Below are positions 4,201 through 31,385 of a stretch of 32,000 nucleotides of DNA, one piece after another. A program made the position numbers and the translations under genes. The stretch spans positions 120,001-152,000 of the forward strand of contig OZ246420.1 of assembly GCA_965231145.1 (NCBI GenBank), read 5' to 3'. This stretch comes from Candidatus Saccharimonadota bacterium (GTDB taxonomy: Bacteria > Patescibacteriota > Gracilibacteria > Absconditabacterales > Absconditicoccaceae). Under the pieces are notes generated by a model. It had not been told where the DNA came from. It ran no database searches and saw nothing but the letters and a program-made list of their open reading frames with translations. How positions within the stretch are numbered: position 1 is the stretch's first letter; each line of letters begins with the position of its first letter.

Positions 4201-5249
4201 CTTCTGCATCTATATGCAGCGGAACATCAGTGACGTTCTCAGCCACACCATCGGCAGGAGGCTCTTCGCCTAGCTACCAATGGTACATAGGAGCAACGCC
4301 TGTTGCTACTGGTAGCACCTTTTCTTCTTCAACTCTTGCAACAGGTGATGCTGTGAAGGTTGTGATGACCAGTAGTGCGGCTTGTGCTTCACCGACTACG
4401 GCTACCAGCGTGATAACCATCATGACTGTTACGCCAAGTGTTGCCCCCTCAGCTACCATTAACGCGACGCCTGGCACAACAATCTGTCCAGGCACTCCCG
4501 TTAGTTTTACTTCCTCTATCACAAACGGAGGCTCTACGCCTACGTACACATGGAAGAAGAATGGTGTTCCTGTTGGAAGTGGCACTACTTATAGCAGCTC
4601 AGCACTCATAAATGGAGATGTTATTGTTCTTACTGTAACTGGTAGTGCTGCGTGTTCAGTACCATCAACAGTTAATAGCAATACAATCACTGTAACGGTT
4701 AATACGCCGGTACCAGTGCCTTCGTTTACTATAAGTGGGACTCCAGTCCTTGTTGGATCTGGTGTTTACAAGGGGATCTATACTGCCACTATACCTAGTG
4801 GCGTATCTACTTATACGTTAGACTGGTACTTAAATGGAGACCTCCAGGCAAGTACTATAACTAATAGTTGGGTTCATGATCCGCTTGTTAGTGGGCATCC
4901 TGACACAGTTTACGCTGTGTTGACGCCTACGAGCGGCTGCTATTCACCAGACACTTTCAAGTCTGGTGCAATTGTTCTAAAGTCTCCCGTTGGCGTTGCC
5001 GCGCTAACGAAAGAGAATGTTAATATATATCCAAATCCAGTACATAATCTTCTTACCATTGAAGGTTTGCATAAAGGCAGCTCCGCTGTCGTTGTAAATG
5101 TTCTTGGGCAGGTGGTGAAAAACTATACGTTTATGAATGACAATTCTGAACAAATAGAATTTACATCGCTTATGCCGGGCATCTATACGTTGCGTATCAT
5201 TGATGAAGAGGGTATGTCGGAGTTGGTATACAAACTAATGAAAGAGTAA
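1230..5249 (+). CDS. secreted subtilisin-like (S8) serine protease with 7+1 Ig-like repeats and a T9SS-type C-terminal sorting domain
   Basis: Uninterrupted 1339-codon ORF with a TAA stop and no in-frame TGA. Signal peptide MKKLLILMSFVCSFCVPVFAQ. Subtilase triad motifs VGVIDGG (Asp), GHGTVVSS (His) and GTSQAAPKIAG (Ser). The C-terminus NIYPNPVHNLLTIEG...GIYTLRII...KLMKE resembles the Por/T9SS tail. Confidence 0.9.
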   Translation: MKKLLILMSFVCSFCVPVFAQFVTNEIQVVTKAPIVWNSKEQSAEFLEKFPAGSKVVNCADITLFSQQEDLVRQGRYWGTLFLVQLPTSNASTLVSTKQALLENDESVVKDVYLNVVGSSNSSTPITFSDPVFPYDMQYNAAAIAGGVKYTGWQHANGYIFYNTDRILVGVIDGGANLSHQDAVNSYYINALEIAANGIDDDMNGRIDDVNGWNFVSSNNNVADDNPIGHGTVVSSELGARNNNSKNTVGYLSDSMSVLVLKAANSSGTVTDFATASAYYYALSKHCRIVNMSFGFSSVPTSLMAAIATGVVAPYNCVPVAAVGNTGGSYTAYPASGAHVLTVGNCDNGGVRHSTSSYSTELDIMAVGVNVAGHHPTSTTLNTTLTGTSQAAPKIAGVCHKILKADSTLTVDDVIDLVRSRGLNHAFLPMTGWGPFSGLDTLMHNMMSPDTVVTFAACSGKQCLPYSKHFAPVDSLRFGLAAIAGDSINTNLLTAGTYTYKLSVKFEPRPGEFFRDTFNLKVVITGSGGSVAPTISINATPGGAVCAGTSVNFTSTITDGGASPTYVWKVNTVTVGTGSSYSYTPASGDVVYAILTSSAGCASPATVNSNTITMTVNPSVTPGVTINATPAGAICAGTLVTFNSTIANGGSTPSYQWKKNGVIVGSGTTYTDMTLATSDIITCNLTSSAVCAVPATVASNTITMTVNPVLVPGITINATPVGAICAGTSVTFSSVVVNAGSSPVYDWKVNGVSVGSGTSYSSSTLVSGDLVTCSLASSATCASPSSVTSNTITMTVNPSVTPGVTINATPAGSVCTGTSVTFTPTITGGGSTPSYQWYVNSVPVGTGTSYSSSSLVTGDLVSCTLASSAACATPSSVGSNTITMTVSSSVTPSIIVAATPGANVCTGTTVTFTATPSGGGSTPTYQWYKNSIPVGTSSVTYVDASLLSGDVISCELISSLACVTTSTAMSAAITMTVNATVTPAVAVAVSPSASICSGTSVTFSATPSAGGSSPSYQWYIGATPVATGSTFSSSTLATGDAVKVVMTSSAACASPTTATSVITIMTVTPSVAPSATINATPGTTICPGTPVSFTSSITNGGSTPTYTWKKNGVPVGSGTTYSSSALINGDVIVLTVTGSAACSVPSTVNSNTITVTVNTPVPVPSFTISGTPVLVGSGVYKGIYTATIPSGVSTYTLDWYLNGDLQASTITNSWVHDPLVSGHPDTVYAVLTPTSGCYSPDTFKSGAIVLKSPVGVAALTKENVNIYPNPVHNLLTIEGLHKGSSAVVVNVLGQVVKNYTFMNDNSEQIEFTSLMPGIYTLRIIDEEGMSELVYKLMKE
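2820..4709 (+). repeat. seven in-frame tandem repeats of about 267-273 nt (about 90 aa), plus a degenerate eighth copy up to about 4985
   Basis: Repeat units start at 2820, 3087, 3354, 3627, 3897, 4170 and 4440. Consensus: VTPgvTINATPaGaiCAGTSVTF.S.i.nGGStPsYqWk.NGv.VGsGt.YsSs.L..GD.v.C.LtSSa.Ca.P..v.SNTITMTVN. Similarity is visible at DNA level, for example 3077-3127 versus 3617-3666. Confidence 0.9.
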
Positions 5250-5270
5250 GCTAATAGAGAAATCTATTGA

Positions 5271-5297
5271 GCGCCCGGTATCTTCCGGGCGCTTTTC
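5271..5297 (+). terminator. rho-independent terminator of the protease gene
   Basis: The arms gcgcccgg and ccgggcgc form a perfect 8-bp stem with loop tatctt, followed by TTTT. Confidence 0.8.
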
Positions 5298-5309
5298 TTA
5301 TTATTCGAA

Positions 5310-5337
5310 TTGTTTTTTAAGGTCGTTTTCTTATACT
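5310..5337 (+). promoter_or_regulatory. possible promoter TTGTTT-16 nt-TATACT
   Basis: The spacer is 16 nt like the other block promoters, but the -35 box is weaker. Confidence 0.3.
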
Positions 5338-5411
5338 GTACAAACGCACAAAGAGAGAAAAAACAAAAATATCGTTAACAAAAATTCCTGAGAAAGGAAA
5401 AAAAATTTATT

Positions 5412-6155
5412 ATGGAAAATAATAGAAGTAGATACAGATTGAGCTTGTTCGTCATTGTAATAATGACGATTATAACAAGCTGTAAAAAGTCTGAACAGTT
5501 TGAGCTGGGGAAAAAAACTGCTGTCCGGCGTGTTCAGACTTTACAGGTGCAAACCCGAGATCAGCAGACCTCGGGCCGAACCTTTCCTATCGATATGCAG
5601 AGTGCTGCCATTTTCAGTCCCATCGAGCTAGTAGCGAAGTCTGATAGCTCAGGGGTGGAGGAAATATTGGTAAATCGTATATTTCAGGATGTGCTCTCTC
5701 AAGGTGAAAAGCTTTGGGGGCGCTACTTTCTGGATGGGCAGTATGCCTATGCCAGTAATATCCGTCGTTATATCGAGAAAAAGTACTCAGTTGTGTGTCA
5801 AAAGTACTTTATATTTGGAGATCTTACAGCTGTTTCACCTCGTTATGGTTGTGTCGCATCATGGAAATATGATGTAGCATGTGCCATCCGAGGTAAAGGG
5901 GGTGTTTTATACATTCTTGATCCGAGGCTCTTCTCCAGTGTGGTTACACAAAACAAATGGATAGAATCTCACCTCTATCCAACTGCTAGTGTACCACAGC
6001 CACGTCTGACTTCTCAGGCGTTGGTAGCTGGCGAATCTTTTACGCCTGTCGACAATGTGCCTTCCGGATATCTTGTAGATGCGGATTATCGCTATACGGA
6101 TATCATGGTAGATTACTATGCTGACAGCGTAGGCTGTAATAATATTCTTCAATAA
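5412..6155 (+). CDS. lipoprotein, protein-glutaminase-like fold with a substituted catalytic triad (likely pseudoenzyme)
   Basis: The signal ends ...IMTIITSC, a lipobox-like Cys24. The segment DGQYAYASNIRRY...KYFIFGDL...CVASWKYDVA...YILDPRLFSS aligns from memory to Chryseobacterium protein-glutaminase DGCYARAHKMRQI...KQFVYGNL...CVAWSYHVA...RIIDPSLFSS. Compared with that enzyme, Cys is replaced by Gln (5739-5741), His by Asp (5871-5873), and Asp is kept (5919-5921). TAA stop, no TGA. Confidence 0.6.
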   Translation: MENNRSRYRLSLFVIVIMTIITSCKKSEQFELGKKTAVRRVQTLQVQTRDQQTSGRTFPIDMQSAAIFSPIELVAKSDSSGVEEILVNRIFQDVLSQGEKLWGRYFLDGQYAYASNIRRYIEKKYSVVCQKYFIFGDLTAVSPRYGCVASWKYDVACAIRGKGGVLYILDPRLFSSVVTQNKWIESHLYPTASVPQPRLTSQALVAGESFTPVDNVPSGYLVDADYRYTDIMVDYYADSVGCNNILQ

Positions 6156-6177
6156 GATAGATTCATCTCTTTGTGCT

Positions 6178-6215
6178 GGGATCTCGTGTTTTCACGGGGT
6201 CCCTTTATTTTATTT
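6178..6215 (+). terminator. rho-independent terminator
   Basis: An 11-bp stem gggatctcgtg / cacggggtccc (with G-U pairs) and loop tttt, followed by a T-rich tract. Confidence 0.7.
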
Positions 6216-6219
6216 TCTC

Positions 6220-6358
6220 TTGCATTTAGCATATATATTGTTATTATAAAGGCGTTGAAAGTTGTCCGAGGTGAGATACGAGACAAAAGACAACATGTAT
6301 TCCATAATAAATTATTAACGATATTCTAAGGGATCTGTTTTGTACAGGACCCTTTTTT
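6220..6358 (+). ncRNA. candidate small transcription unit (promoter + about 105 nt + terminator) with no plausible ORF
   Basis: TTGCAT 6220-6225, a 16-nt spacer, and TATTAT 6242-6247. There is an internal hairpin gttgtc...gacaac. The terminator agggatctg/caggaccct plus T5 at 6329-6358 closely resembles the preceding terminator. Confidence 0.25.
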
Positions 6359-6554
6359 GTATTTGTAATTTATTTGAGCTTGTCTATATTTTCTGAAGTG
6401 ATGAATTTATAGTCGCGTCACCGGAGAGATTTTTCTAGTGATGCAATTTATAAGAGTTGACCTGTTCTCAGGCTGGCTCTTTTTTCTTTTTCTGTTCTTT
6501 CTCACTTTTTTTCGTGGAGATAATAAATAAGTAGGCGGCATTTATTTCCAATGT

Positions 6555-7010
6555 ATGTCGATGAAACATAGTGCTGTCGCGCCTGAGCATCAGGCGATTA
6601 TTTGCCTCGCTGAGCTTGCTCTTGGAGAGGAATGGGAACATATATCGAGAGTAGTGAAAAGCTTGTTGTACCTTTCGCAGAGTGAAAGATGATATCTGAC
6701 AGTTATGTTGCCTGCTGTCTTATTCTTTACTCTCGATGAAGGTTTTCGCTATAATCTTTTAAAAAGCGTTGATACATACAACGATGAGGCTATTGAATAT
6801 ATTTCCTCTCTACAACAAATGCTTCGCGTAGGAAAGTATCTTGATAGTAATGAGTATCGCATGATACATGATGCATTTCTTCTCAATGCTGATCGCGCTG
6901 TGGCGATAAAAGAAATGCAGACTGAGTCTGGTAAGGTGCTCATGAAGCAGAGAAAAGCTGCGCTGAGGATATTTTATAAAAAAGAGAAAAAGGATATGAT
7001 AAGCGTCTAA
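6555..7010 (+). CDS. hypothetical protein (code 25; one TGA-Gly at 6690-6692)
   Basis: The frame of track ORF 6705..7010 stays open upstream to the TAA at 6528. ATG candidates lie at 6555 and 6561. No homology recognised. Confidence 0.5.
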
Positions 7011-7012
7011 GG

Positions 7013-7034
7013 AGACGCACTGCAGTGCGTCTTT
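7013..7034 (+). terminator. palindromic hairpin after the 6555..7010 gene
   Basis: The arms agacgcac and gtgcgtct form a perfect stem with loop tgca. The T-run is short. Confidence 0.4.
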
Positions 7035-7144
7035 ACATATCTTCTCGTTGTTTTTGAGAGGAAGATCAGTAGTATATGTGTGCTGAGCAACAACTCAGAT
7101 ACTAAGGATTCATATCCTTTTTTACTCGTTTCCCGCACAAACGC

Positions 7145-8248
7145 ATGAAAAAATTATTGTACACACTTTTGACGTTCTATAAGTTCGTCGACATACAAGA
7201 CCCTGAGAAAGAGGTAAAGGACCATCTCGCTTTTTGTAAAGACGTCGGTCTGAAAGGCCGTATATATATTGGTGAGGAAGGTATCAGCGCAACACTCACC
7301 GGAAATGATGGACAAATCAAAGCGTATAGGATGTATTTGAATAATAATCCTTATTTTAAAGATATTCCAGATATTGATATTAAAGCGACTCGTGTAGATG
7401 ACTACTATTTTGATCGTATGATTGTGAAGTATCGTAAAGAGATCGTAGCGCTTGGAACTACTGTAACACAAGCCGAAATTGAGGAGTATCGCAAGGAAAT
7501 GTCGGCTGAAGATTTCAAAAAGCTTATTGACTCCGGAGACCTTGAGGACTGGGTGATTATCGACATGCGTAATGACTATGAGTATAAGCTCGGACATTTT
7601 AAGAATGCTATTCCTGCGGGAACTATTAATTTTCGTGAAGTGCCAGACTTGCTTGATAAGTACAAGCAGCTTTTTGGTGAGAAGAAAATTATCTGGTATT
7701 GTACTGGAGGAATCCGTTGCGAAAAGCTTTCTGCTATGGTGTCTAAGGCATGATTCAAAGATGTGTATGCACTCGAGTGAGGTGTTGTGAAGTATGTAAA
7801 TAGTTATAATGACGGTAACTGGCTGGGTAATCTTTACACGTTCGATGGGCGTGTATCGACTCGTGTTGGTGACGATGAAACACATACAACCATTGGTGAG
7901 TGTATCTATTCTGGTATGAAAACGGATAACTGCGAGAATTGCCGCTATAGTCCTTGTAATGCACGCATTATCTGTCGCAAGAAACAGTATAAGCGCCACA
8001 TGGGTTTCTGCTCTCAGGAGTGTTATGAGAATGCGAAGAAGGATCTCCTTATCAAAAATATCGCAGGTGATGAGTTTGATTATCAAGCAATTCGTGATAG
8101 CATTAAAAAGATCGCTGATGAAAACGGAGACAAGGATGCTATAGAAGCGTTGCGTCAGCAGGTAGTGAAGCATCTTGAGGATGAGCTCGGTGTTGTGAAA
8201 TTTAATCACGCTGTCAGTCAAAAAGAGACAGTTATTTTCCAAGATTAA
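7145..8248 (+). CDS. trhO: tRNA uridine(34) hydroxylase TrhO (rhodanese-domain UPF0176/YceA family)
   Basis: ORFs 7145..7753 and 7787..8248 join through TGA at 7751-7753 and 7778-7780. The segment [21 protein letters not shown](G)FKDVYALE(G)GVVKY parallels E. coli YceA [36 protein letters not shown]. A Cys-rich C-terminal tail follows. Confidence 0.85.
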
Positions 8249-15667: not shown

Positions 15668-15994
15668 ATGCGAAAATATATATACTGGTTACTTATCGTG
15701 ACAGTTCATATTCTGGTCTTTGCTCCAGGAGATCTTATACATGAATATTGGCTTATATCATGTTTTATAAGCTGTGTATTTGGACTGTGGGGATTTCTTT
15801 CTCTTCGGACAAGAGAGTATTGGAGTTCATTGGGCTATTTCATCTCTGATGTATTGCTGCTTATAAGCTTCGCATGGCCGCTCAATAGCTACGATAAAAT
15901 CTGTCCTTGGGTATCTATTCATCTTTGCTTTATTGTCTATATTCTCATAGCATTATACGTCAAAATCCGAAGAAAAGGATATGAAAACATCTAA
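15668..15994 (+). CDS. small integral membrane protein (about 4 TM)
   Basis: 108 aa with four hydrophobic segments, a TAA stop, a terminator immediately downstream, and no TGA. Confidence 0.65.
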   Translation: MRKYIYWLLIVTVHILVFAPGDLIHEYWLISCFISCVFGLWGFLSLRTREYWSSLGYFISDVLLLISFAWPLNSYDKICPWVSIHLCFIVYILIALYVKIRRKGYENI

Positions 15995-15998
15995 TGAG

Positions 15999-16022
15999 GC
16001 CCTGGATTCCGGGGCTTTTTTT
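15999..16022 (+). terminator. rho-independent terminator
   Basis: The arms gccctgg and ccggggc with loop att, followed by T7. It lies inside the spurious N-terminal extension of track ORF 15981..16865. Confidence 0.75.
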
Positions 16023-16036
16023 GTTGCAAAAGGGCT

Positions 16037-16064
16037 ATTGACAAAGTTGGCTCAATGGTTATTA
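16037..16064 (+). promoter_or_regulatory. promoter TTGACA-16 nt-TATTAT
   Basis: The boxes lie at 16037-16042 and 16059-16064. Confidence 0.5.
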
Positions 16065-16091
16065 TATTTGCACAATAAAAAAGAAAACAAT

Positions 16092-16865
16092 ATGAAAAAC
16101 AAAATGATGACATTCCTCAGTATTATATTGCTTTTTGCATGTAGTGTGAGTGCTCAAAAAGTAGGACTCTTCTTGAAGCAAGGAGAGCGTGAGCTGATCA
16201 TAAGTCAGCTTAAGAAAATGACCTATCTTGGTACGCCGGCTCAAACCGAACTGCGTTTGCCTGGGAGGGTAACTGTCCAAGTTTCATACAGTACAAAACT
16301 TAACATACTAAAGGCAGAGAAAGACTCTGATATGGTATGGATGGAATTCAGCCAAGGAGCGCGTACATTTACTGCGATCGTATTCAATGAGTACGTTCAG
16401 GCTACTGTTCCGGGGAAGTTTACTGTCGCTGAGATGGGAAAATATTTCAGGATGACAGTAGATTCACTTATGCCGTCGCTCAGCAAGGATCCTTTCGATA
16501 AGGTTCTTGCTATGAAAGTGCCGGATACCGTATTTGATAAAGTACTACAGAAAGTATTGAGGGCGGAAAATCATATGATGGACTGTCCTGTGAAAAATAT
16601 GAATATTCAGCCGAAAATTAAATACGTTCCAATGAATAGTAGTTACAATCCTGATGATCAATTACAAATCATTTCTTCTGAAAACGTTGGTCAGGATAAA
16701 CCCGCTACTATGAAGATAGCAAAAAATGGTGTGTCAGCCTTTACCATTATCATCACGAAGCAGGGTGTTACCGCTCAGTTCTACAACAAGCGAGCGTACG
16801 ATCTTATAGGTGACAATGATGAGGCCATTGAAAATCTTGTTAAAGAAGTATTTGGTATGAATTGA
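16092..16865 (+). CDS. secreted hypothetical protein
   Basis: The start was moved to ATG 16092, after the terminator and promoter. Signal peptide MKNKMMTFLSIILLFACSVSAQ. It ends in TGA 16863-16865, and TAG follows 4 codons later. No internal TGA. Confidence 0.65.
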   Translation: MKNKMMTFLSIILLFACSVSAQKVGLFLKQGERELIISQLKKMTYLGTPAQTELRLPGRVTVQVSYSTKLNILKAEKDSDMVWMEFSQGARTFTAIVFNEYVQATVPGKFTVAEMGKYFRMTVDSLMPSLSKDPFDKVLAMKVPDTVFDKVLQKVLRAENHMMDCPVKNMNIQPKIKYVPMNSSYNPDDQLQIISSENVGQDKPATMKIAKNGVSAFTIIITKQGVTAQFYNKRAYDLIGDNDEAIENLVKEVFGMN

Positions 16866-16890
16866 TATTACTATTAGGGTCTCTCAACAG

Positions 16891-16919
16891 CCGTCTTGTG
16901 TTCTACAGGCGGTTTTTTT
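16891..16919 (+). terminator. rho-independent terminator
   Basis: A ccgtct/aggcgg stem (one G-U pair) with a 10-nt loop, followed by T7. Confidence 0.6.
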
Positions 16920-16989
16920 ATTGCAAAAATCAATTTTTATAAATAGTTTACGAAGGTTACTATCCTTGTATTAACAAAAATACTCATTG

Positions 16990-17015
16990 CTTCCGTGTCA
17001 CTCACGGGAGTTTTT
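16990..17015 (+). terminator. orphan terminator-like hairpin
   Basis: The arms cttccgtg and cacgggag with loop tcact, followed by T5. No gene sits upstream. A possible TTTACG-16 nt-TATTAA box lies about 35 nt upstream. Confidence 0.35.
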
Positions 17016-17022
17016 CTTTTAC

Positions 17023-17046
17023 AAAAAAACCTCCGGATGCCGGAGG
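17023..17046 (-). terminator. rho-independent terminator of the 17065..17934 gene
   Basis: The arms cctccgg and ccggagg, with A7 on the plus strand, which is a T-run on the minus strand. Confidence 0.7.
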
Positions 17047-17064
17047 TTAAAGTGTTTCGAATGC

Positions 17065-17934
17065 TTAGAGAAATAAAAGCTTTACGGTATTGCCGTCGTG
17101 CAATAGAGCTCCGTAAGAGTGCGAAATAACTTCGATTTCTTTAGGTTCAAAACATGACAATAGGGTTTCTTCTCCAAGATAAGAAAGATATCGCCAGCTA
17201 CTTTCATAGTATAAGAGTATACCTTCTTTGCATGGCCAGAAATCTTCGTACTCGTTAGTGAGTGCATAATGCCGTTCCTCATCTTTGTTTTCCTGTCTTA
17301 CATAGATGAGCGATTCTTCTGTGGTGAGTATGATGGCCGGACAAGGTGAGCTTTGATTGATGAGCCAGTCTGAGTATTTGTCAGACTCTTTATCTGCTAG
17401 GTGGCCTGTGTAGTTACTACAACAGTAGAATATTTCGCTATATGTGTCTACGATAACCCCTTCCCAGCCGGCTTCCCATTTGAAATCTTTTGCGCTCGAG
17501 AACAATAGCGTTTCTTCTTGTGTTCTAAGGTCGAAAGAAAACAGAGTTTTGCTTTCTTGGTTGTACAATATGAGTCCCTTGTTATTTAATCCCCAAAAAG
17601 TTACTTCTCTTGTAGATGAATATACCAGCTCTTTACCTCCTTTTGTGAGTCTGAAGAAGTCACGATCAACTTGTATGATGATGTAGGGTTCGATATTATT
17701 GTAAAAGACATCCCATCCATCATGTTCTTCGTCGGCAATGATCTCTCCGTCTGTGGATTGTATGAGGTTTCCACTACAAATAATAGCTCCTCCTTTGTAA
17801 GCTGAAACTAGCTGACATTCTCCTTGGTAGAGTATGGTAAAATCTCCTGTACAAGGCCTGTTTTCTGCTATGAGAGCCGGAAGACTGTCATTGTTCGCTA
17901 CAGCGCGATGTAGCCAGAATTTTTGTTTTTTCAT
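17065..17934 (-). CDS. cytoplasmic beta-rich repeat protein, function unknown
   Basis: The start was set at MKKQKFWL (ATG 17934). It is 289 aa with no signal peptide. Blade-like segments recur (IIIQVDRDFFRL, LILYNQESKTLFSF, VIVDTYSEIFYC, AIILTTEESLIYV, ILLYYESSWRYL). TAA stop, no TGA. Confidence 0.6.
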   Translation of the reverse strand: MKKQKFWLHRAVANNDSLPALIAENRPCTGDFTILYQGECQLVSAYKGGAIICSGNLIQSTDGEIIADEEHDGWDVFYNNIEPYIIIQVDRDFFRLTKGGKELVYSSTREVTFWGLNNKGLILYNQESKTLFSFDLRTQEETLLFSSAKDFKWEAGWEGVIVDTYSEIFYCCSNYTGHLADKESDKYSDWLINQSSPCPAIILTTEESLIYVRQENKDEERHYALTNEYEDFWPCKEGILLYYESSWRYLSYLGEETLLSCFEPKEIEVISHSYGALLHDGNTVKLLFL

Positions 17935-17986
17935 TTTAGTATAATTGTTTTTTAGGTGTTTGTTAATGATCTTGTTGACAATAGTC

Positions 17987-18014
17987 ATTGTAATTCGTTC
18001 CTATCTAATGTCAA
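17987..18014 (-). promoter_or_regulatory. promoter TTGACA-16 nt-TACAAT (minus strand)
   Basis: The -35 box is at 18009-18014 and the -10 box at 17987-17992. Confidence 0.5.
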
Positions 18015-18466: not shown

Positions 18467-20947
18467 ATGACTTTGTTTAATCACTTCCTTGAAATTGGTT
18501 ATATGCAAGAAGTAGTATGAATTTTAGTTGGTATAGTAGCCTTATGGCTGATAAGTGTGTGACTCTATAGGTCATATATTTTGCAGTGGAAGAAAAGATA
18601 TGGATTACAAAAAGCGCATGAGTTAAGATTTCTACAGGTGAAAATTCCACAGAAGAACTCTGATCAGGACCAGAAAAATGACAACATCCAAAATATGAAA
18701 CAGAATATTGAAGTCATGAACCAGGTGATGAAAAATTTCTATGCGGTCTATTCGAAAAAGTGGAAAGCGAACTTTCTCGTGCAGAACTACGTGAGTCTGG
18801 AGATGCTCGTGGAGAAAGAGATGATTAAGTTTATTATCGGGGTTCCGAAAGATTATATCGATACGATGGAGAAAAGTATCTCATCCTTTTATCCTGGTTC
18901 GGTGATCGACTTTATTGATCAGCCTAAACTTCTTGATGCCGGGAAGTATGTCGGGGGTGGAACGTTTAAGCTTTCAAAGAAAGATGCCTTCCCGATAAAG
19001 ACTTATGAAGCATTTGAAGCAGATCCGATGGAGTCTATTGTCTCTGCGTTTTCACGTGTCGACAATGATGAAAAGCTGTGCTTACAAATTCTTCTCGCGC
19101 CGGTTTCGGAGAAGGAACAGCAGAACATGAGAAAGACCATAGATGATATTAAAGAATGAAAAAAGAAAGAAAGTTTCTGGTCGATGCTGAAAAATATCAA
19201 ACCAAAGAGTGAGAAAAAAGAGGATAAGCCCGAGAAAAAAAATACGAAGTACTCATCTCAGCAGATGAGTGATCTCGATAAGAAAACAGAAGACGAGCTC
19301 TACAATGTGACGATCAAAGCGCTTGCCGTGTCTCCACATCCACATCGTATCGACATCATCTTAAATGATCTCGCCCGTAGTATGAGCCAGTACGCGTATG
19401 TTGGACTCAATACGCTCTGATTTAGCAAGGTGAAGACTGACCTTATCGGCGAGTTTACAGCGGCTTTTGTAAACAGGCTTTTTGACAAAGGGGAAACAGT
19501 GACATCGTTCGTCAAGCGTCAGCTGCTCAATATCAAAGAACTTTCATCTATTTTTCACTTTCCACATTTCCGTTTCAATCGTTCGCCACGTATTAAGTGG
19601 CAGACATATAAGATCGTGCCAGCTCCGGAAGGAGTACCAAGTGAAGGACTGGAGCTTGGATACAACTTATTCGCAGGTGTAAAAAGGGTTATTAAGTTAA
19701 AAGATAAAGATAGATTTCGTCACTTCTATATTATCGGACAGACGGGTACAGGTAAGTCGTCGATCATGGTGACGATGATTAAGCAAGATATGGAAAAGAA
19801 GCGTGGCTTTATGGTGATCGATCCCCATGGAGAACTTTGTGAAACAGTTATGCAATACTTCCCGAAGGAGCGCATAGATGATCTCGTCTATTTCGATGCG
19901 TCGAATATGGACTTTCCATTTGGTCTCAATATTTTCACTGCGCAAAACGAAGACGAAAGAAACCTTATCGTGAGTGATCTTATCGATATGTTCGTGGGTA
20001 TGTACGGTGAAGAAGTGTTTGGTCCGCGTATACAAGATTACTTTTCAAACGCTGCGCTTATGCTTATGGAGCAGCCGGAAGGCGGAACGCTTACGGAGAT
20101 CGTTCGTGTATTTACGGATCCTGCATTTCAAAAAGTGAAACTGAAAAACGTTACCAATCCTGTCGTTCGTAGCTGGTGGGAAAGAACCTATGCAGCCATG
20201 GGTGATCGTGAAAAGGGTGAGATGATTCCATTCTTCCAGGCGAAGTTCGGACCGTTTATTACCAATGGTATCGTGCGTAATATTCTCGGACAACCAAAGT
20301 CATCATTTGATATGTCACAGATCATGCAGGAAGGAAAGGTTATTCTCGTCAATCTTTCAAAAGGATTGCTCGGTGATTTCAACTCACAACTTCTCGGTCG
20401 TATGCTTGTCACGCAGGTGAAGGTAGCGGCTCTTCGCCGCGCAGGTATGCCAGAGCATGAACGTGTTCCGTTCTTCTTGTATGTGGATGAAATGCAAAAC
20501 TATGTTTCGAAGTCTATCGAATCAGTGCTTTCCGAAGCTCGTAAATATAAGCTTGGTATGATCATGGCGCATCAGTATATCGACCAACTTAAGCAACATA
20601 GCATCGGAGGAGACAGCGACCTTTCAAAAGCGATCTTTGGTAACGTTGGAAACATGCTGACGTATCGTGTAGGTCCAAATGATGCAGAGTTCCTCGAGAA
20701 GCAATTCTCTCCGGTCTTCAGTCAGCAGGATCTTATGAACCTCGACCAGTTCAAATGTTGTTTTAAGATGGAAGTAGACGGTCAGTCTATCCCGCCATTT
20801 AGCATGAACTGTATTAAGTTCTTCCAGGAGTATCAGACGATGAACACACCAGAGAAGATCGCTATCATGAAACAGATTTCTGCACTCAAATATGGTAGAA
20901 AGAGAGACCTCGTAGAGAAGGAAATTTATTATAGAGTTGGAGTGTAA
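18467..20947 (+). CDS. membrane-anchored P-loop ATPase, type IV coupling protein (VirD4/TraD)-like, FtsK/HerA superfamily
   Basis: Track ORFs 18581.., 19184.. and 19430.. share one frame, joined by TGA at 19157 and 19418, with two more TGA at 18518 and 18560. The N-terminus has a TM helix. Walker A IIGQTGTGKSS, DPHGEL, Walker B FFLYVDEMQNY, and ARKYKLGMIMAHQ. Confidence 0.7.
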
Positions 20948-21020
20948 ATTTATTTTATATTTTGTATTCTATATTTTATATTATAAAAGGAAGCCGTCCG
21001 AGAGGGCAGTTTTTTTATTA

Positions 21021-21050
21021 AAAAAAAACCACCGGTATGACAGGTGGTTT
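21021..21050 (-). terminator. rho-independent terminator (usable from both strands)
   Basis: A8 followed by the arms ccaccgg and caggtgg, then TTT. On the minus strand the hairpin is followed by T8. Confidence 0.7.
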
Positions 21051-21069
21051 ATTAATCTATTATCTGTTC

Positions 21070-21666
21070 TCATTCGCTTTCATCAAGGCATAGCTTTACG
21101 AGCTTAGGCAGGGCGTGTATGTCCCGTATAAGTTCGGAATGCATATTCCTGAATACACCTTCATGTTTTTTTACTTCCTTAGCAAAAAAGCCATTTTGCC
21201 CCATCTTATCTTGCGTTCTACGATATTGCTCGCGTCCGATTCCCTCGTATTGAGGTATACCCAGGAGAGGAATATTCTTATGCTGGCAGTAGTGTAGCAG
21301 GTCTATATATGGATGCCCTGTCCCGCCAATGCATATTGCCAGGTCTATAGTTTCGCTGTTCAAGATCGCGTTAACGCGATCCTGTGCGAACTGTATAGGG
21401 GGACAATTCATTAGCCTCAGGTAGTCAGTATGAATATACGGATAGTATGTATGTATGTCTTTTTCCGCAATGCCGTGCGAGAGTGCGTATAATGTTACTG
21501 CGGTGCTCATGTACTGGTTAAAACTGATGCCATCCGTGTTTATAAATCGTACATGGTTTTCTCTCAGTATCTGTTGGAATAACAATATGTATTCCCTAGC
21601 ATTTTGATCTGCGAGCAACCGACCTTTTGATGCGCCGAAGAAGAGGATGTTTTTTCTTTGTGTCAT
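21070..21666 (-). CDS. Rossmann-like protein with YpsA/LOG/DprA (SLOG)-like motif order, paralogue 1 of 3
   Basis: NILFFGAS...VRFINTDGISFNQYMSTAVTLYAL...DLAICIGGTGHPYIDLL...NIPLLGIP. It ends in TGA 21070-21072 just before the terminator. No internal TGA. Confidence 0.4.
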   Translation of the reverse strand: MTQRKNILFFGASKGRLLADQNAREYILLFQQILRENHVRFINTDGISFNQYMSTAVTLYALSHGIAEKDIHTYYPYIHTDYLRLMNCPPIQFAQDRVNAILNSETIDLAICIGGTGHPYIDLLHYCQHKNIPLLGIPQYEGIGREQYRRTQDKMGQNGFFAKEVKKHEGVFRNMHSELIRDIHALPKLVKLCLDESE

Positions 21667-21685
21667 AGTATTGTATTTTAGTTTT

Positions 21686-22318
21686 TTAGTTTGTGAGTTT
21701 GAATTCGATAATAGATCTTTCTACAATAGGCCTAAATGAACCTATGCCGGCATCTTTTTGTTCAGCCATGAAAGCAAGAAATAAATCAGCGTCTGTCATG
21801 AGTTCATACATGGTATGTGCGTATGTCCCTGGCTTTGGCATGGTCTTCAGAAGCTCTTTGTAGAGCTGTAAACCTTTGTTCATCGCCTCAATCCCTTCTT
21901 CATAAGGGATGCCCACAACTGGAATAGCTCCATCTGCGGCCATATATATTTGTTCGCTGCAGCCATGAGACTCGCCGATGAAAACTATCAGGGCTGGTTT
22001 AGCCGCCTTGACGATATTTTCACCGATAAGCCGCGAAATAAGTGAGTCAGGCTCATCTTTTGTCTCTGCGATAGCATTTGCAGGAGCATCTATATACACT
22101 TCCATGTAGTCATGTATGGAACGGCTTTTGTCTGCTAATACATACGACCATACAGCAATAGAAATATATTTATCTATGTACAGACCTGCTGCATTTATAA
22201 TGCATACATTTTCTGTAGAGAGGAGTGTTGTGATGGCTCGCATGAAGGTAAGCTTTTCATTTTCCGTCATGCTCTTTGATAGTGATCCGAGGATCATTAA
22301 TCTGATTTTTCCGTTCAT
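21686..22318 (-). CDS. Rossmann-like protein with YpsA/LOG/DprA (SLOG)-like motif order, paralogue 2 of 3
   Basis: RLMILGSL...VCIINAAGLYIDKYISIAVWSYVL...ALIVFIGESHGCSEQIY...AIPVVGIP. TAA stop. There is a 19-nt gap to paralogue 1. Confidence 0.4.
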   Translation of the reverse strand: MNGKIRLMILGSLSKSMTENEKLTFMRAITTLLSTENVCIINAAGLYIDKYISIAVWSYVLADKSRSIHDYMEVYIDAPANAIAETKDEPDSLISRLIGENIVKAAKPALIVFIGESHGCSEQIYMAADGAIPVVGIPYEEGIEAMNKGLQLYKELLKTMPKPGTYAHTMYELMTDADLFLAFMAEQKDAGIGSFRPIVERSIIEFKLTN

Positions 22319-22348: not shown

Positions 22349-22376
22349 ATTTTATGATTAAATATTTGGATGTCAA
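22349..22376 (-). promoter_or_regulatory. promoter TTGACA-16 nt-TAAAAT (minus strand)
   Basis: The -35 box is at 22371-22376 and the -10 box at 22349-22354. Confidence 0.5.
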
Positions 22377-27399: not shown

Positions 27400-27984
27400 A
27401 TGAAAATAGAATATGAAGCTAAATTTTTATCTATTAATTTAACTGCTATTCGTAAGGCTTTTAAAGCTATAGGAGCTCATTGTGTTCATCAGAAATTGCT
27501 AATGAAGAGGGTTTTATTTGATCATCCTACCCTTGATAATGCTTTCATTAGAATTAGAGATGAAGGTAATCTTATTACGATGACATGAAAGCACATCGTT
27601 GATTATGAAAAAGTTGATGGCACGAAAGAAGTTGAACTTGAAGTAAATGATTTTAACAATGCAAAAGCCTTTATTAATTTTCTTTGAATCAAAACTAGAT
27701 CCTACCAGGAGACTTATAGAGAAATTCGACAACTGAATGATATAGTCTTCGCTATAGATGAGTGGCCTGGTATAGAACCATTTCTTGAGGTTGAGGGTGC
27801 TAGCGAAGATATAGTAAAATGAATTGCTGAAAAACTCTGACTAGATTTTAATAATGCTTATTTTTGAGCAGTAGATCTTATTTATGAAAAAGTGCTTTGA
27901 ATTTCAAAGAGTGATTTTAACAACTTAAAGTTGATTACTTTTGATAATCCTCCTTATAGGTGAATGGATGTTTATTCCGTTTAA
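27400..27984 (+). CDS. CYTH-domain protein (class IV adenylate cyclase / triphosphatase fold)
   Basis: The N-terminal EYEAKFL matches the ExExK signature. Further motifs: IRIRDEG..ITMT(G)K and IDEWPGIEPFLEVEG. 7 TGA-Gly. TAA at 27982-27984. Confidence 0.65.
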
Positions 27985-28620: not shown

Positions 28621-28643
28621 AAAAAACCTCCTGAAACAGGAGG
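28621..28643 (-). terminator. rho-independent terminator
   Basis: A6 followed by the arms cctcctg and caggagg with loop aaa. On the minus strand the hairpin is followed by T6. Confidence 0.7.
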
Positions 28644-28666
28644 CTTGTTTAATGTGGGGAATGTTG

Positions 28667-28984
28667 TTAGTCTTCAGGAAGTTCGGTTACTTTTTCGCCT
28701 TCTTCCAGAATTTTGTTGTACAGTTCTTCAGCGATCTCTTTTGAGCCTTCGGCGTGTGCCTGGTCTTTGTCGTCATACATGTTTTTATCGTCTAAATCTT
28801 TTGGGAAGTAGACGCAGGCAACACTTTTTTCCGACAGTTCAGGTATTTCACCGGAAATGCAGAGGATGGCGTCATCCGTTTGTTCCTTTTGTAGAATGCC
28901 GAACTCTTTGTAAAGAGGACTGTCTGTCGGGATTCGCACGAAATAACAAGTGGCGAATAATTGTTGGATATTATTTATATGCAT
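28667..28984 (-). CDS. small acidic cytoplasmic protein, unknown function
   Basis: The start was set at ATG 28984 (MHINNIQQLF..). 105 aa with an Asp/Glu-rich C-terminal half. TAA stop. Confidence 0.5.
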   Translation of the reverse strand: MHINNIQQLFATCYFVRIPTDSPLYKEFGILQKEQTDDAILCISGEIPELSEKSVACVYFPKDLDDKNMYDDKDQAHAEGSKEIAEELYNKILEEGEKVTELPED

Positions 28985-29004
28985 ATAGATGTGTTTAGGT
29001 TTCA

Positions 29005-29032
29005 ATATTACTACTGAGAGAGTGTAAGTCAA
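29005..29032 (-). promoter_or_regulatory. promoter TTGACT-16 nt-TAATAT (minus strand)
   Basis: The -35 box is at 29027-29032 and the -10 box at 29005-29010. Confidence 0.5.
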
Positions 29033-29050
29033 TATCTCCTTTTTTGTATA

Positions 29051-29073
29051 AAAAAACTGCTGAGGATCAGCAG
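29051..29073 (-). terminator. rho-independent terminator
   Basis: A6 followed by the arms ctgctga and tcagcag with loop gga. Confidence 0.7.
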
Positions 29074-29092
29074 TGAATAGAATGGGATTGTG

Positions 29093-29758
29093 CTATGTTG
29101 TGATAAGTTGAGATTGTCCTGCGAGGCGGATCCGCTCGTCCAGGTTAAATACGCCCTGTATCCAGGTGGTAACAGTTGCTTTAAAGTAGGAGATAAATTT
29201 TTGCCCAATCGTGTCGAGATAACCTTTGAGCTCCAGTAGTTGTATGCATTGTTCATAATTAGAAGCCGCGGGTAGAGAGCCTTCTAGCATCTGTGATATG
29301 CCCATGTTCAAGTGGTCCTGTAATACTTTGCTTGATACATAGTTTCCAAGTGTGCCGTTGCGTGGGAAACTAATACTGATGATGTGGGGTTGTTGCCAGA
29401 GGAATCTGGTAGTCGGATCTATGTCCCCTAACGCAATCATTAATTGTGGATGATGCAGAGCAAAATCATTTAATTTTTCTTGAGATATGAAATGTCTGCT
29501 TCTGCGTCCCGGTAAGGTTTTGTGGGTGTGTAGTGTTCCGATGTTCGCGCAAATATCTTCGCGTTTCCTTCTTTGTTGCATCGCTGCTTCCATAACAGCC
29601 ATCCTGATATACGCATCGAGATGTTGTCCACAAACGTTGATGATTTTAATGCGTCTGTTCTCCAGGATGTGCATTAGCCATTTCGTCAGACGAGTGACTT
29701 GTTCAATGTTGAGCGGTTCGTTGAGTCGGCCGCTTAATACGAGTGCTATTTGTGCCAT
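29093..29758 (-). CDS. Rossmann-like protein with YpsA/LOG/DprA (SLOG)-like motif order, paralogue 3 of 3
   Basis: The start was set at ATG 29758 (MAQIALVLSGR), downstream of its own promoter. Motifs: IKIINVCGQHLDAYIRMAVMEAAM...QLMIALGDIDPTTRFLW...HIISISFP. TAG stop. Confidence 0.4.
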   Translation of the reverse strand: MAQIALVLSGRLNEPLNIEQVTRLTKWLMHILENRRIKIINVCGQHLDAYIRMAVMEAAMQQRRKREDICANIGTLHTHKTLPGRRSRHFISQEKLNDFALHHPQLMIALGDIDPTTRFLWQQPHIISISFPRNGTLGNYVSSKVLQDHLNMGISQMLEGSLPAASNYEQCIQLLELKGYLDTIGQKFISYFKATVTTWIQGVFNLDERIRLAGQSQLITT

Positions 29759-29787
29759 AAGCGCGAATTTTGTTTGGGTGAAATGTA

Positions 29788-29815
29788 ATTGTATCCATTG
29801 AAAGGTATATTTCAA
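29788..29815 (-). promoter_or_regulatory. promoter TTGAAA-16 nt-TACAAT (minus strand)
   Basis: The -35 box is at 29810-29815 and the -10 box at 29788-29793. Confidence 0.45.
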
Positions 29816-29830
29816 TATTCTTTCACTATA

Positions 29831-29854
29831 AAAAAAGCCCCCGAATCCGGGGGC
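29831..29854 (-). terminator. rho-independent terminator
   Basis: A6 followed by the arms gcccccg and cgggggc. It starts 3 nt after the TGA stop of the 29858..30292 gene. Confidence 0.75.
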
Positions 29855-29857
29855 AAA

Positions 29858-30292
29858 TCATTCGTTAGTGTCTTCTGGTTTTTTCTCTTTTCTCTTGTCA
29901 GGGTCAAATATCTTGTCGAGTTTATCCACGCTTAGTTGGCGATGGAGAAATTTACTTACTCTCTCGGCTGGAACTCTCATGTTGAGGTGGATTCCTGTTA
30001 TGATCCCAAAGCCAATACAGTAGATCAGAAAAGGAATCATTTCGGGCTCACCCCAGGCTATGAGTCCTATGAAGCCATTTATGCAGATGATGCCAAATGC
30101 CCATAGTAACCATAAGTCAGCTTTCTCTTTCTTATCACGCACAGCATCTGTTATAAAGTATGCTATGAGGATATTAAACAAGAAGCCAAATTTACATATG
30201 GTTGGATCAAATAGTTCATATGGAACTTCATAATAGATGATAAGATTAAATACCACCAGGAGAACTATGGATATAAGGTCTTTGAGTCCCAT
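29858..30292 (-). CDS. small integral membrane protein (4 TM) with a Lys/Asp-rich C-terminal tail
   Basis: 144 aa with four hydrophobic segments. It ends in TGA 29858-29860. It overlaps the upstream gene by 28 nt. Confidence 0.6.
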   Translation of the reverse strand: MGLKDLISIVLLVVFNLIIYYEVPYELFDPTICKFGFLFNILIAYFITDAVRDKKEKADLWLLWAFGIICINGFIGLIAWGEPEMIPFLIYCIGFGIITGIHLNMRVPAERVSKFLHRQLSVDKLDKIFDPDKRKEKKPEDTNE

Positions 30293-30681
30293 GCTGTTTT
30301 GTTTAGGTAGTGAGCAAATCTTTGTTTTATTTCCCTTGTTGTTTTGATGTGCTGGCGTATCTCAGTTATAAGATAGCCGATGAATACTTCTGTTGCATAG
30401 GCGCAGAGAGTGACGTCGAGCTTATGTGCTACCAGGCCGGCCGTTATGAACATGCCTAAGCAGAACAGAAGAAAGAATACGGCCATGAGTATGAAGCCGG
30501 TTTCTTTTTCTTTCCGTGAGAGATATGCAGCAGAACCGACGATAACTATGCCGTTTTGTATGATGCCCCACCAGAGCTGTAGTGGATCGGTTGGGTCAAG
30601 CATAATGTGTTCGTCGCTTATTGCCAATGCAGGCAAGCAACACAGGAGCAGTATGCTCAAAAGTAGTGTAGTCTTTTTCAT
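30265..30681 (-). CDS. small membrane protein (signal peptide + 3 TM)
   Basis: The start was set at ATG 30681 (MKKTTLLLSILLLCCLPALA). TAG stop. Confidence 0.6.
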   Translation of the reverse strand: MKKTTLLLSILLLCCLPALAISDEHIMLDPTDPLQLWWGIIQNGIVIVGSAAYLSRKEKETGFILMAVFFLLFCLGMFITAGLVAHKLDVTLCAYATEVFIGYLITEIRQHIKTTREIKQRFAHYLNKTAWDSKTLYP

Positions 30682-30710
30682 GATATTTTTCTTTTGGTTT
30701 GATGCTGCAA

Positions 30711-30738
30711 ATGATACGCGCATGCTATGCAATGTCAA
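30711..30738 (-). promoter_or_regulatory. promoter TTGACA-16 nt-TATCAT (minus strand)
   Basis: The -35 box is at 30733-30738 and the -10 box at 30711-30716. Confidence 0.5.
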
Positions 30739-30764
30739 TAGTTCTCTTACATACATTCACTTAT

Positions 30765-30795
30765 AAAAAAAGTCTGCCTGAGATTCAGGTAGACT
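30765..30795 (-). terminator. rho-independent terminator
   Basis: A7 followed by an 11-bp stem agtctgcctga / tcaggtagact (one G-U pair) with loop gat. Confidence 0.75.
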
Positions 30796-30831
30796 TCGTG
30801 TTTCGTATGAGGCTCTGAGTTTATTTTTCTT

Positions 30832-31203
30832 CTATGCTGTTGGGCCTGCGGCTCTTTTGTAGAGCCAGCACAGAAAGACCCCCACAGCTATTTCTAATAG
30901 GTAAACAATAGAACCAATAAGAAGGCTATGGATGCCTGCCATGTTTAGGCCTATTAGCGCTGCAATTATTAAGCCTAAGATAAGGCTTGACGTGTTAGAC
31001 GGCATGAGATCCCAGAGAAAGGAACATCCTATGAGTAGCACGCCGATAGTGATAACAGCTATCATATGAGCTTGGTGGTCCAAACCTGCATGAAATATAA
31101 CCTTGCCGAGATAGTGGACTGACAAGCCAAATGCTAGTACTGTTAGGCAAATGTATAAAAGCTCTGTAAGTTTTGTGCTGTTCTTTTTGGTAGATGTGTT
31201 CAT
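30832..31203 (-). CDS. small integral membrane protein (4 TM)
   Basis: 123 aa with four hydrophobic segments. TAG stop. Confidence 0.6.
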   Translation of the reverse strand: MNTSTKKNSTKLTELLYICLTVLAFGLSVHYLGKVIFHAGLDHQAHMIAVITIGVLLIGCSFLWDLMPSNTSSLILGLIIAALIGLNMAGIHSLLIGSIVYLLEIAVGVFLCWLYKRAAGPTA

Positions 31204-31227: not shown

Positions 31228-31255
31228 ATTATATTCGGAGATTTGTGTAAGTCAA
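31228..31255 (-). promoter_or_regulatory. promoter TTGACT-16 nt-TATAAT (minus strand)
   Basis: The -35 box is at 31250-31255 and the -10 box at 31228-31233. Confidence 0.55.
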
Positions 31256-31385
31256 TAGCTGCTGTCTTTCTCGTTCTTGCAATCTTATGGCTAAAATTTA
31301 CTATCTTATCTATCGATTCTTCAATAGAAAATGGAAAATAAAAAATATTTTCTATCTTCTATTTTTTATTAGATATTGAGTAGCG

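Follow-up and report, generated by a model that had tools for sequence, protein, structure and literature searches.

The stretch of DNA described here, referred to as the window, comprises 32,000 nucleotides (nt) of contig OZ246420.1 (positions 120,001 to 152,000; GenBank assembly GCA_965231145.1). It comes from a bacterium deposited as Candidatus Saccharimonadota and placed by GTDB in the Absconditicoccaceae of the Patescibacteriota. On its minus strand, the window encodes three proteins of the SLOG superfamily, named A, B, and C. A (21070..21666) is 198 amino acids in length, B (21686..22318) is 210 amino acids, and C (29093..29758) is 221 amino acids. All three consist of a SLOG domain only and lack a SIR2 domain, a TIR domain, and a transmembrane segment. 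Near C lie the genes for three small membrane proteins, TM1, TM2, and TM3, and for a small acidic protein. The nearest characterised relative of A, B, and C is the SLOG domain of the Thoeris protein ThsA, which binds the TIR-made signal 3' cyclic ADP-ribose (3'cADPR). The three proteins belong to a new, divergent, and lineage-restricted family in a known SLOG domain family.

Paralogues and transcription units

The initial annotation had aligned the three open reading frames (ORFs) with each other, and the motifs that it quoted are present in each. In pairwise BLASTP, A and B match with an E value of 1e-7 over 178 amino acids, B and C with an E value of 3e-5 over the first 64 residues, and A and C with an E value of 0.005. 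A hidden Markov model (HMM) built from 16 family sequences finds exactly three copies in the window, and these are A, B, and C. Judged by sequence comparison, the three proteins are true paralogues. C is the weakest of the three members, with a low-confidence structural model.

B is the first gene of a B-A unit. Its sigma-70-like promoter, TTGACA-16-TAAAAT (22349..22376, minus strand), is a consensus match only, agreeing at 11 of 12 positions, with 30 nt between the end of its -10 element and the start codon of B. After A lies a hairpin, ACCACC...GGTGGT, followed by a run of nine T (21020..21048, minus strand). This hairpin was recognised by eye and is not on the list of the terminator scanner because its 9-nt loop exceeds the limit of that scanner; it is likely a terminator common to A and a convergent ATPase gene. 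C has a promoter-like site of its own, TTGAAA-16-TACAAT (29788..29815, minus strand), found by consensus scan between the terminator of TM1 and the C start codon, and an intrinsic terminator with an 8-pair stem and a run of seven T (29056..29074, minus strand). Across the window, the consensus scan places sigma-70-like promoters 27-30 nt upstream of TM3, TM2, C, the acidic gene, and B, and the terminator scan finds intrinsic terminators 3' of TM1, C, and the acidic gene. This placement makes B-A one unit, and TM2-TM1, C, and the acidic gene separate units that do not form an operon.

Fold and nearest family

A profile of the family searched against the PDB sequences recovers the ThsA of Streptococcus equi (SeThsA, 7UXT) over residues 305-473 with an E value of 3e-13, and a second ThsA, 8WC0, with an E value of 0.016. 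The AlphaFold2 model of A, built from the 16-sequence alignment, has a predicted local distance difference test (pLDDT) score of 89 and a predicted template modelling (pTM) score of 0.87. It consists of a beta-alpha Rossmannoid core followed by three helices. The top nine Foldseek matches of this model in the PDB are all ThsA SLOG domains, either free or bound to 3'cADPR, with E values of 1e-5 to 3e-4 and query-normalised TM-scores of 0.64-0.70 over the whole length. Lower matches are the SLOG folds of TRPM, LOG, PpnN, DprA, and MoCo carrier proteins, with LOG at a query-normalised TM-score of approximately 0.45 compared with approximately 0.64-0.70 for ThsA. The model of C has a pLDDT of 69, and residues 161-221 (the C-terminal third) are unmodelled or disordered. 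Its best Foldseek match is the SLOG domain of BcThsA, with an E value of 1.8e-3.

Pfam agrees with this assignment. The STALD family ('Sir2- and TIR-associating SLOG', PF18185) matches 4 of 16 members, with a best E value of 1.7e-6, and LD_cluster3 (SLOG cluster 3, PF18180) also matches 4 of 16, with a best E value of 7e-5. The ThsA/STALD models of PADLOC match P0013 (1e-8), P0012 (6e-6), and, weakly, B (0.009). When A, B, and C are scanned singly against Pfam, no match is returned; therefore, STALD membership holds at the family level, through the profile. Single-sequence scans of the three against NCBIfam, PADLOC, and PHROGs likewise give nothing usable except for the weak ThsA match of B. 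Neither A, B, and C nor the rest of the family has a Pfam match to SIR2, and the 198-221 amino acids of the three align at full length to the SLOG domain alone. No member has a Pfam match to Lysine_decarbox/LOG, DUF1273/YpsA, or DprA at E values up to 1-10.

By strand order and by comparison of the models, A, B, and C are predicted to have the SLOG fold. The initial annotation had proposed this fold and had suggested testing it by profile and structure searches; ThsA SLOG domains top both kinds of search, and the Pfam STALD and PADLOC matches support the same fold. It had also placed the proteins closest to YpsA, LOG, and DprA. This part did not stand: the nearest characterised family is the STALD/ThsA SLOG family, and YpsA, LOG, and DprA are superfamily-level matches only.

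Outside of the family, the motif E[FY]xLCK[KE]H leads to streptococcal-type ThsA genes followed by ThsB as the nearest sequences. A metagenome scan with patterns of the canonical subgroup returned only bona fide streptococcal-type ThsA+ThsB loci and no family members. Among such sequences, the standard-code metagenome contigs L019-L028 (e.g., L022 7527-9071) carry a gene for a 348-amino-acid ThsA-like protein followed by a gene for a 165-amino-acid ThsB-like protein. The SLOG domain of the ThsA-like protein is near that of S. equi ThsA, and its N-terminal region is approximately 150 amino acids shorter than in full-length ThsA. These proteins may be a truncated or variant Thoeris effector.

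Distribution and evolution of the family

The family is very small. An exhaustive search of 1.84 billion representative proteins with the A+B+C profile recovers only 15 clusters, whose proteins are all of 177-224 amino acids and all with the same order of motifs. Word-indexed homologue searches returned nothing beyond the window's own proteins and P0004. The sole named member is labelled 'hypothetical protein' at NCBI, and the expectation of a divergent, unannotated family was borne out. Every informative genomic context is a Patescibacteria genome that translates TGA as glycine (code 25), and the family is seen so far only in such genomes of the Absconditabacteria/Gracilibacteria type. A phage origin was considered and rejected: tblastn against 50,697 phage records gave no match, the PHROGs scan of A, B, and C gave none, and among the viral structures of BFVD only generic SLOG folds were found.

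The locus L003, from another assembly, is syntenic with the window. The two share 76% DNA identity over the TGA-rich block at 23.3-28.6 kb, and their AlaRS proteins are 96% identical. C and its orthologue in L003, P0004, are 71% identical, with a ratio of nonsynonymous to synonymous substitution rates (dN/dS) of 0.10 and a dS of about 1.9. TM1 is 57% identical to its orthologue with a dN/dS of 0.08, and the acidic gene has a dN/dS of 0.15. Synonymous sites are saturated in all three comparisons (dS about 1.4 to >3). These substitution patterns indicate that C, TM1, and the acidic gene are functional, under purifying selection, and were already in the common ancestor of the window and L003. A and B are more diverged from their counterparts in L003, at 35% identity between A and P0005 and 21% between B and P0016, where orthology is assumed from position.

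The presence of SLOG genes is patchy. In a genome labelled 'Patescibacteria group bacterium' (L007/L012), P0008 is convergent to the same ATPase gene as A in the window. This arrangement is found in the window and L012 only, and adjacency to the ATPase is absent in L004, L011, and L018. L013 has an ATPase 84% identical to that of the window and no SLOG gene at that site, and in a genome scan anchored on the ATPase one of four loci carries a SLOG gene. In L004 and L011, the SLOG genes come after MFS and DUF4012 genes. In the window, L003, and L004, SLOG genes are found as tandem copies. Neither tRNA genes nor direct repeats were found at the cassettes by which they could be recognised as integrated elements. 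Such patchiness, tandem duplication, and rapid divergence are typical of conflict-related accessory genes, which the SLOG genes may be.

L004 also holds a very divergent second SLOG-like paralogue (6940-7626) of 228 amino acids, which the family HMM matches with an E value of 2e-6 over part of the domain. It is in tandem with P0006, with a 68-amino-acid basic ORF between the two.

Membrane and acidic neighbours

All five small neighbours named in the initial annotation are present, and the membrane proteins among them have three to four hydrophobic segments. TM1 (29858..30292, minus strand; 144 amino acids) has approximately four transmembrane segments and a charged tail, and a terminator, GCCCCCGGATTCGGGGGC with a run of seven T, stands directly after its TGA (29837..29854, minus strand). 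TM2 (30265..30681, minus strand; 138 amino acids) has three to four hydrophobic segments, a promoter-like site at 30711-30738 (minus strand), and a weak match to DUF2339 as its sole family match. Its gene overlaps the start of TM1 by 28 nt; therefore, TM2 and TM1 are probably co-transcribed. TM3 (30832..31203, minus strand; 123 amino acids) is a protein with four transmembrane segments and a promoter-like site at 31228-31255 (minus strand). TM2-TM1 lies upstream of C and TM3 further upstream; the acidic gene lies downstream. Neither TM2 nor TM3 has a homologue in the other loci examined, including the syntenic L003. The fourth membrane protein (15668..15994, plus strand; 108 amino acids, three to four hydrophobic segments by hydropathy) is encoded in another TGA-free block, 5 kb from A and beyond the ATPase gene, and has no homologue near other SLOG genes.

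The acidic protein (28667..28984, minus strand; 105 amino acids) has a promoter-like site at 29005-29032 and a terminator at 28624-28646 (both minus strand). Its family, of approximately 105 amino acids, shares invariant C-x-S-G and V-x-F-P-K-D motifs and has no match in Pfam, PADLOC, PHROGs, or the PDB sequences. Of all neighbours, it recurs most often beside SLOG genes, in the window, L003, and L017. In L003, the C orthologue has a homologue of it on either side (4270-4584 and 5489-5809), and in L017 one lies just upstream of the SLOG gene P0014 (3-224; E value 3e-14). The promoter regions of the acidic gene (29005-29045) and TM3 (31228-31268) share a 24-nt near-repeat, GTGTAAGTCAATA..., over the -35 element, which suggests that they are related promoter cassettes.

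The clearest operonic pairing of a membrane protein with a SLOG protein in the family is in L018. There, a TGA-free region (4960-6746) holds the gene for a 220-amino-acid protein with two transmembrane segments and the SLOG gene P0015 as one bicistronic unit from promoter to terminator. This unit is preceded by a gene for a 121-amino-acid protein with four transmembrane segments, which has its own promoter and terminator. The L003 cassette encodes a homologue of the 220-amino-acid protein (30% identity, E value 2e-18), and a homologue of the 121-amino-acid protein is encoded directly downstream of P0014 in L017 (E value 5e-10). The layout of two transmembrane segments plus a tail is found only in this 220-amino-acid family of L018 and L003, and the window has no homologue of it. 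In total, small multi-transmembrane genes adjoin SLOG genes at about three of nine independent sites, which are the window and L003 (at C), L017, and L018. TM1 to TM3, the 15668..15994 protein, and the membrane proteins of L017, L018, and L003 have no match to SLATT at E values up to 10, none in PADLOC, PHROGs, or the PDB sequences, and none in Pfam beyond the weak DUF2339 match of TM2.

TGA avoidance and stop codons

TGA is a sense codon in this genome. Many housekeeping ORFs are complete only when TGA is translated, and in the TGA-rich housekeeping genes of the window TGA makes up 100 of 351 glycine codons (28.5%). The source organism is a code-25 (TGA=Gly) member of the Absconditabacteria/Gracilibacteria radiation. 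The DNA of the window also occurs in Logan assemblies. By Pfam, the TGA-rich genes include those for SufS, FolD, RNase HII, HflX, thymidylate kinase, a CYTH protein, and AlaRS. The ATPase gene that is convergent to A (18467-20947; 826 amino acids, with four in-frame TGA codons) encodes a DUF87/TrwB/TraG-like, or VirD4-like, coupling ATPase with DUF8128 at its N-terminus. In L008/L012 and L013, its synteny with sigma-70, SufS, FolD, and RNase HII is conserved.

The SLOG genes and their neighbours are set in DNA of a different kind. Twelve genes of the higher-GC blocks have no TGA among 237 glycine codons, compared with 28.5% in the surrounding genes, and they use GGC four times as often. The TGA-free blocks are 1230-6155, 15668-17988, 21070-22318, and 28667-31203. 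All 11 SLOG genes that could be placed on DNA are TGA-free, and the L003 orthologues of the cassette genes are equally so. Since the cassettes are TGA-free despite saturated synonymous divergence from L003, they are not simply a recent import, and TGA avoidance, as far as codon usage tells, looks maintained. The first block holds a subtilase gene (1230-5249; 1339 amino acids, with PKD/Ig repeats and a type IX secretion C-terminal sorting domain) and an adjoining gene for a protein-glutaminase-like protein (Gln_deamidase_2; 5412-6155). The sorting domain is a Bacteroidota-type signal. Both genes are TGA-free and therefore look like imports from a standard-code donor.

B ends in TAA and has no in-frame TGA. 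A ends in TGA (21070-21072), followed by five codons and then TAATAA (21049-21054), and the gene at 15981-16865 ends in TGA, followed by three codons and then TAG (region 16863-16877). Phages of these bacteria that are compatible with the standard code have no in-frame TGA and carry back-up stops (PMC10746230), and the stops of A and of 15981-16865 follow that pattern. The prophages in the same study are TGA-rich, and chromosomal cassettes of this kind are not described there (PMC10746230). TM1 ends in TGA and is followed at once by the GC-rich hairpin and T-run, with no TAA or TAG before the terminator (29837-29860). Its L003 orthologue has the same arrangement (4174-4206) with a different hairpin sequence. 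In a cell that reads TGA as glycine, this end predicts a non-stop transcript. Read-through of the TGA into C, which is in frame and would give a 399-amino-acid fusion, was judged unlikely, since a strong terminator and a promoter lie between the genes; the L003 orthologues are also not adjacent in that way.

Proposed function and alternative explanations

We propose that A, B, and C work as free-standing ThsA-type SLOG modules, binding a nucleotide or a ligand derived from ADP-ribose and acting in trans in a conflict-related function, and we hold this to be about evenly balanced between right and wrong. The proposal builds on the paralogy, fold, nearest family, restricted distribution, purifying selection, and recurrent neighbours documented above. 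The proteins are cytoplasmic, consist of a single SLOG domain, and have no effector domain; they would bind the small molecule and are probably dimeric, like the SLOG domain of ThsA. They would act as a sensing or regulatory subunit in trans, in defence or counter-defence. Their partners may be the separately encoded multi-transmembrane proteins, the conserved acidic protein, or both. The genes sit in variable, TGA-free, compositionally distinct accessory cassettes between housekeeping genes.

Several observations weigh against this proposal, beginning with the ligand site. In BcThsA, 3'cADPR is contacted by G289, S290, L326, Q359, R371, K388, G399, and E403 (bioRxiv 10.1101/2022.05.07.491051). 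In a sequence alignment of BcThsA with the 16 family members, the strand-1 glycine (G289) is invariant and the next serine (S290) is frequent, and no other contact is general in the family. The loop bearing K388 is deleted in all 16, and Q359 and R371 are without clear equivalents. The G-[TS]-x-x-E-[FY] motif, which includes E403-F404 and holds the distal ribose, is found in 5 of 16 (P0007 and P0010-P0013), and it is absent from A, B, and C. At E403, the acidic residue of A and B is shifted one position towards the N-terminus, and C lacks one. The 3'cADPR contacts of type I ThsA are thus incomplete across the family and are kept least in A, B, and C, in keeping with the degenerate ligand loops that had been noted from the sequence. 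As the contacts are only partly kept, 3'cADPR is probably not the ligand of A, B, and C.

No maker of such a signal was found either. Among nearly all genes of the window, Pfam detects no TIR, cyclase, or nucleotidyltransferase. A phmmer search with ThsB against all ORFs of the code-25 loci, roughly 130-180 kb, gave no match, and Pfam scans of those L003 and L004 neighbours that lack a known family returned nothing, TIR included. The adjacent thsB (TIR) gene that characterises type I Thoeris was not found in the window or in the related loci examined. Coupling to the neighbours is also uneven. A and B, P0008, P0006, P0010, and P0013 have neither a membrane nor an acidic neighbour; in the window, a separate promoter-like site and a separate terminator bracket each of TM2-TM1, C, and the acidic gene; and the transmembrane predictions come from a simple Kyte-Doolittle hydropathy scan only.

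A gene for a CYTH-domain protein (27400-27984) lies in a TGA-rich housekeeping block approximately 1 kb from the C cassette. The CYTH family includes class IV adenylate cyclases and triphosphatases, and the gene is kept in L003 independently of the C cassette. As a candidate signal synthase it was set aside, being a TGA-rich gene of the housekeeping block that is conserved independently of the cassettes.

The membrane neighbours could also belong to a complete two-part abortive-infection system, in which the SLOG protein senses a nucleotide alarm and gates an adjacent small membrane protein, and the membrane is permeabilised. The bicistronic operon of L018 favours this explanation and fits the '2TM protein + SLOG' pairing of the SLATT paradigm, reportedly described by Burroughs et al. 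in 2015. Homologous genes for proteins with two and four transmembrane segments recur near SLOG genes in L003 and L017, and C is flanked by TM1 to TM3 in the window. Furthermore, TIR-associated SLATT and other transmembrane effectors are documented in Thoeris-like systems (bioRxiv 10.64898/2025.12.03.692087). However, the membrane proteins have no SLATT, PADLOC, or firm Pfam match, they adjoin only about three of nine independent SLOG sites, and even L003, which is syntenic, has no counterpart of TM2 or TM3. Terminators and promoters set TM2-TM1, C, and the acidic gene apart in the window, and neither the window nor the related loci examined have a linked signal synthase. Such a complete system is unlikely. 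The initial annotation had proposed a SLOG-membrane-effector system and a check of neighbourhood conservation across metagenomes. The linkage at about three of nine sites and the L018 operon speak for that system, and the missing SLATT match and the separate units of the window speak against it; the linkage is too frequent to dismiss and too sparse to call conserved. The system is plausible for part of the family, unproven, and not operonic in the window.

A sensor without an effector could instead be a sponge or decoy, soaking up an ADP-ribose-derived immune signal and blunting a Thoeris-like response, either in the episymbiont itself, for the benefit of a resident mobile element, or in its bacterial host. 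This function would resemble that of phage Tad1 and Tad2, and sponge proteins for such signals exist (PMC12043709). The architecture is that of the ThsA sensor domain alone, the genes are fast-evolving, patchy, and tandem-duplicated, and a SLOG gene adjoins the VirD4/TraG-like coupling ATPase in the window and L012. This adjacency is nonetheless absent in L004, L011, and L018; A, B, and C retain the ligand-contact residues poorly; the SLOG proteins show no secretion signal or evidence of export; and neither the 50,697 phage genomes nor PHROGs hold a homologue, with generic SLOG folds only in BFVD. We consider a sponge distinctly improbable. Still less probable is a role in nucleotide salvage in a genome-reduced symbiont, with the SLOG proteins as LOG-like enzymes that act, for example, as nucleotide or nucleoside N-glycosidases or related hydrolases. 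The superfamily is the right one, LOG, PpnN, and MoCo carrier proteins are among the lower Foldseek matches, and P0011-P0013 have a GGxGTxxE-like motif. On the other hand, the catalytic PGGxGTxxE motif of LOG is absent from A, B, and C, no member matches Lysine_decarbox/LOG in Pfam, and the TM-scores favour ThsA SLOG (0.64-0.70) over LOG (about 0.45). Salvage enzymes are also not expected to fall to 21-35% identity between syntenic genomes, nor to be missing from close relatives. Least probable of all is that the genes now have no function and are decaying remnants of standard-code DNA gained by horizontal transfer. Compositionally foreign, TGA-free cassettes, degenerate ligand motifs, and the TGA stop of TM1, which is not backed up before the terminator, would be expected of relics; intact ORFs in several genomes, conserved promoters and terminators, and the retention of three paralogues in a 1.1-Mb genome would not, nor would a dN/dS of 0.08-0.15 for C, TM1, and the acidic gene despite saturated synonymous sites.

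The proposal of trans-acting SLOG sensor modules can be extended to the genetic code, in a form that we regard as very doubtful. Here, the SLOG, acidic, and membrane cassettes would be a code-independent module whose orphan SLOG protein senses or sequesters an ADP-ribose-type signal made in trans, possibly by another organism. The absence of in-frame TGA, together with some TGA-terminator ends, would keep the cassettes translatable without decoding of UGA as glycine. That decoding might be lost during takeover by a standard-code-compatible phage, or be missing in a standard-code host cell after the DNA has been transferred there by the adjoining VirD4-like machinery.

The code-25 Patescibacteria, namely Absconditabacteria and Gracilibacteria, live as obligate episymbionts or predators and have genomes of approximately 1 Mb. 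Three ThsA-type sensor domains under purifying selection, with neither an effector nor a TIR partner, offer a concrete entry to defence or host manipulation by an episymbiont. The cassettes are also clear chromosomal examples of TGA avoidance in a genome in which 28% of glycine codons are TGA, and they bear on how a code change relates to mobile and conflict genes. Interest in the family would rise substantially if either the code independence or the trans-acting signal proves true.

Relation to known systems

The family extends SLOG/STALD to a stand-alone form in a new lineage. Its closest known counterpart is the SLOG domain of ThsA (STALD, PF18185; 7UXT, 7UXS, 8BTO, and 6LHX), which it resembles in whole-protein superposition and in the order of strands and helices. 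Shared motifs are the G-S of strand 1, the h-h-N-x-x-G loop after strand 2, the P-h-x-x-T/G-G-x-x-K/G-E-h-Y loop after strand 5, and, in some members, G-[TS]-x-x-E-[FY]. In contrast to ThsA, the family lacks a SIR2 domain, no ThsB/TIR gene adjoins it in the loci examined, and the loop with K388 is missing. Q359 and R371 are not conserved, nor is E403 in A, B, and C. ThsA structures have been solved from Bacillus and Streptococcus species, whereas the hosts of this family are code-25 Patescibacteria.

Type III Thoeris ThcA (NF058525) is a SLOG-type protein of approximately 184 positions that is encoded with several TIR genes. Like A, B, and C, it is short and has no recognised enzymatic effector domain, and its existence shows that a protein with SLOG alone can take part in a defence system. 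The matches to it are weak and partial: P0012 scores 24 bits and P0013 19.5 bits where the cutoff is 110, and A, B, and C do not match at all. No TIR genes lie near the family members examined. SLOG cluster 3 (PF18180), LOG, YpsA, DprA, and the N-terminal domains of TRPM share the Rossmannoid SLOG fold. LOG, YpsA, and DprA differ in that no member of the family has a Pfam match to them, and the LOG catalytic motif is missing from A, B, and C.

To the anti-Thoeris sponges Tad1 and Tad2 there is a possible functional analogy only, as small soluble putative binders of a TIR signal; their folds are unrelated, and no viral homologues of the family were found. SLATT effectors, a class known from comparative genomics, which have two transmembrane segments and are paired with SLOG or SMODS (as in type VII Thoeris ThsH), differ in that no SLATT model matches in sequence and the window has no homologue of the L018 membrane protein. 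The gene-pair architecture of L018 is the same: a protein with two N-terminal transmembrane helices and a helical cytoplasmic tail is encoded directly upstream of the SLOG gene, in the same operon.

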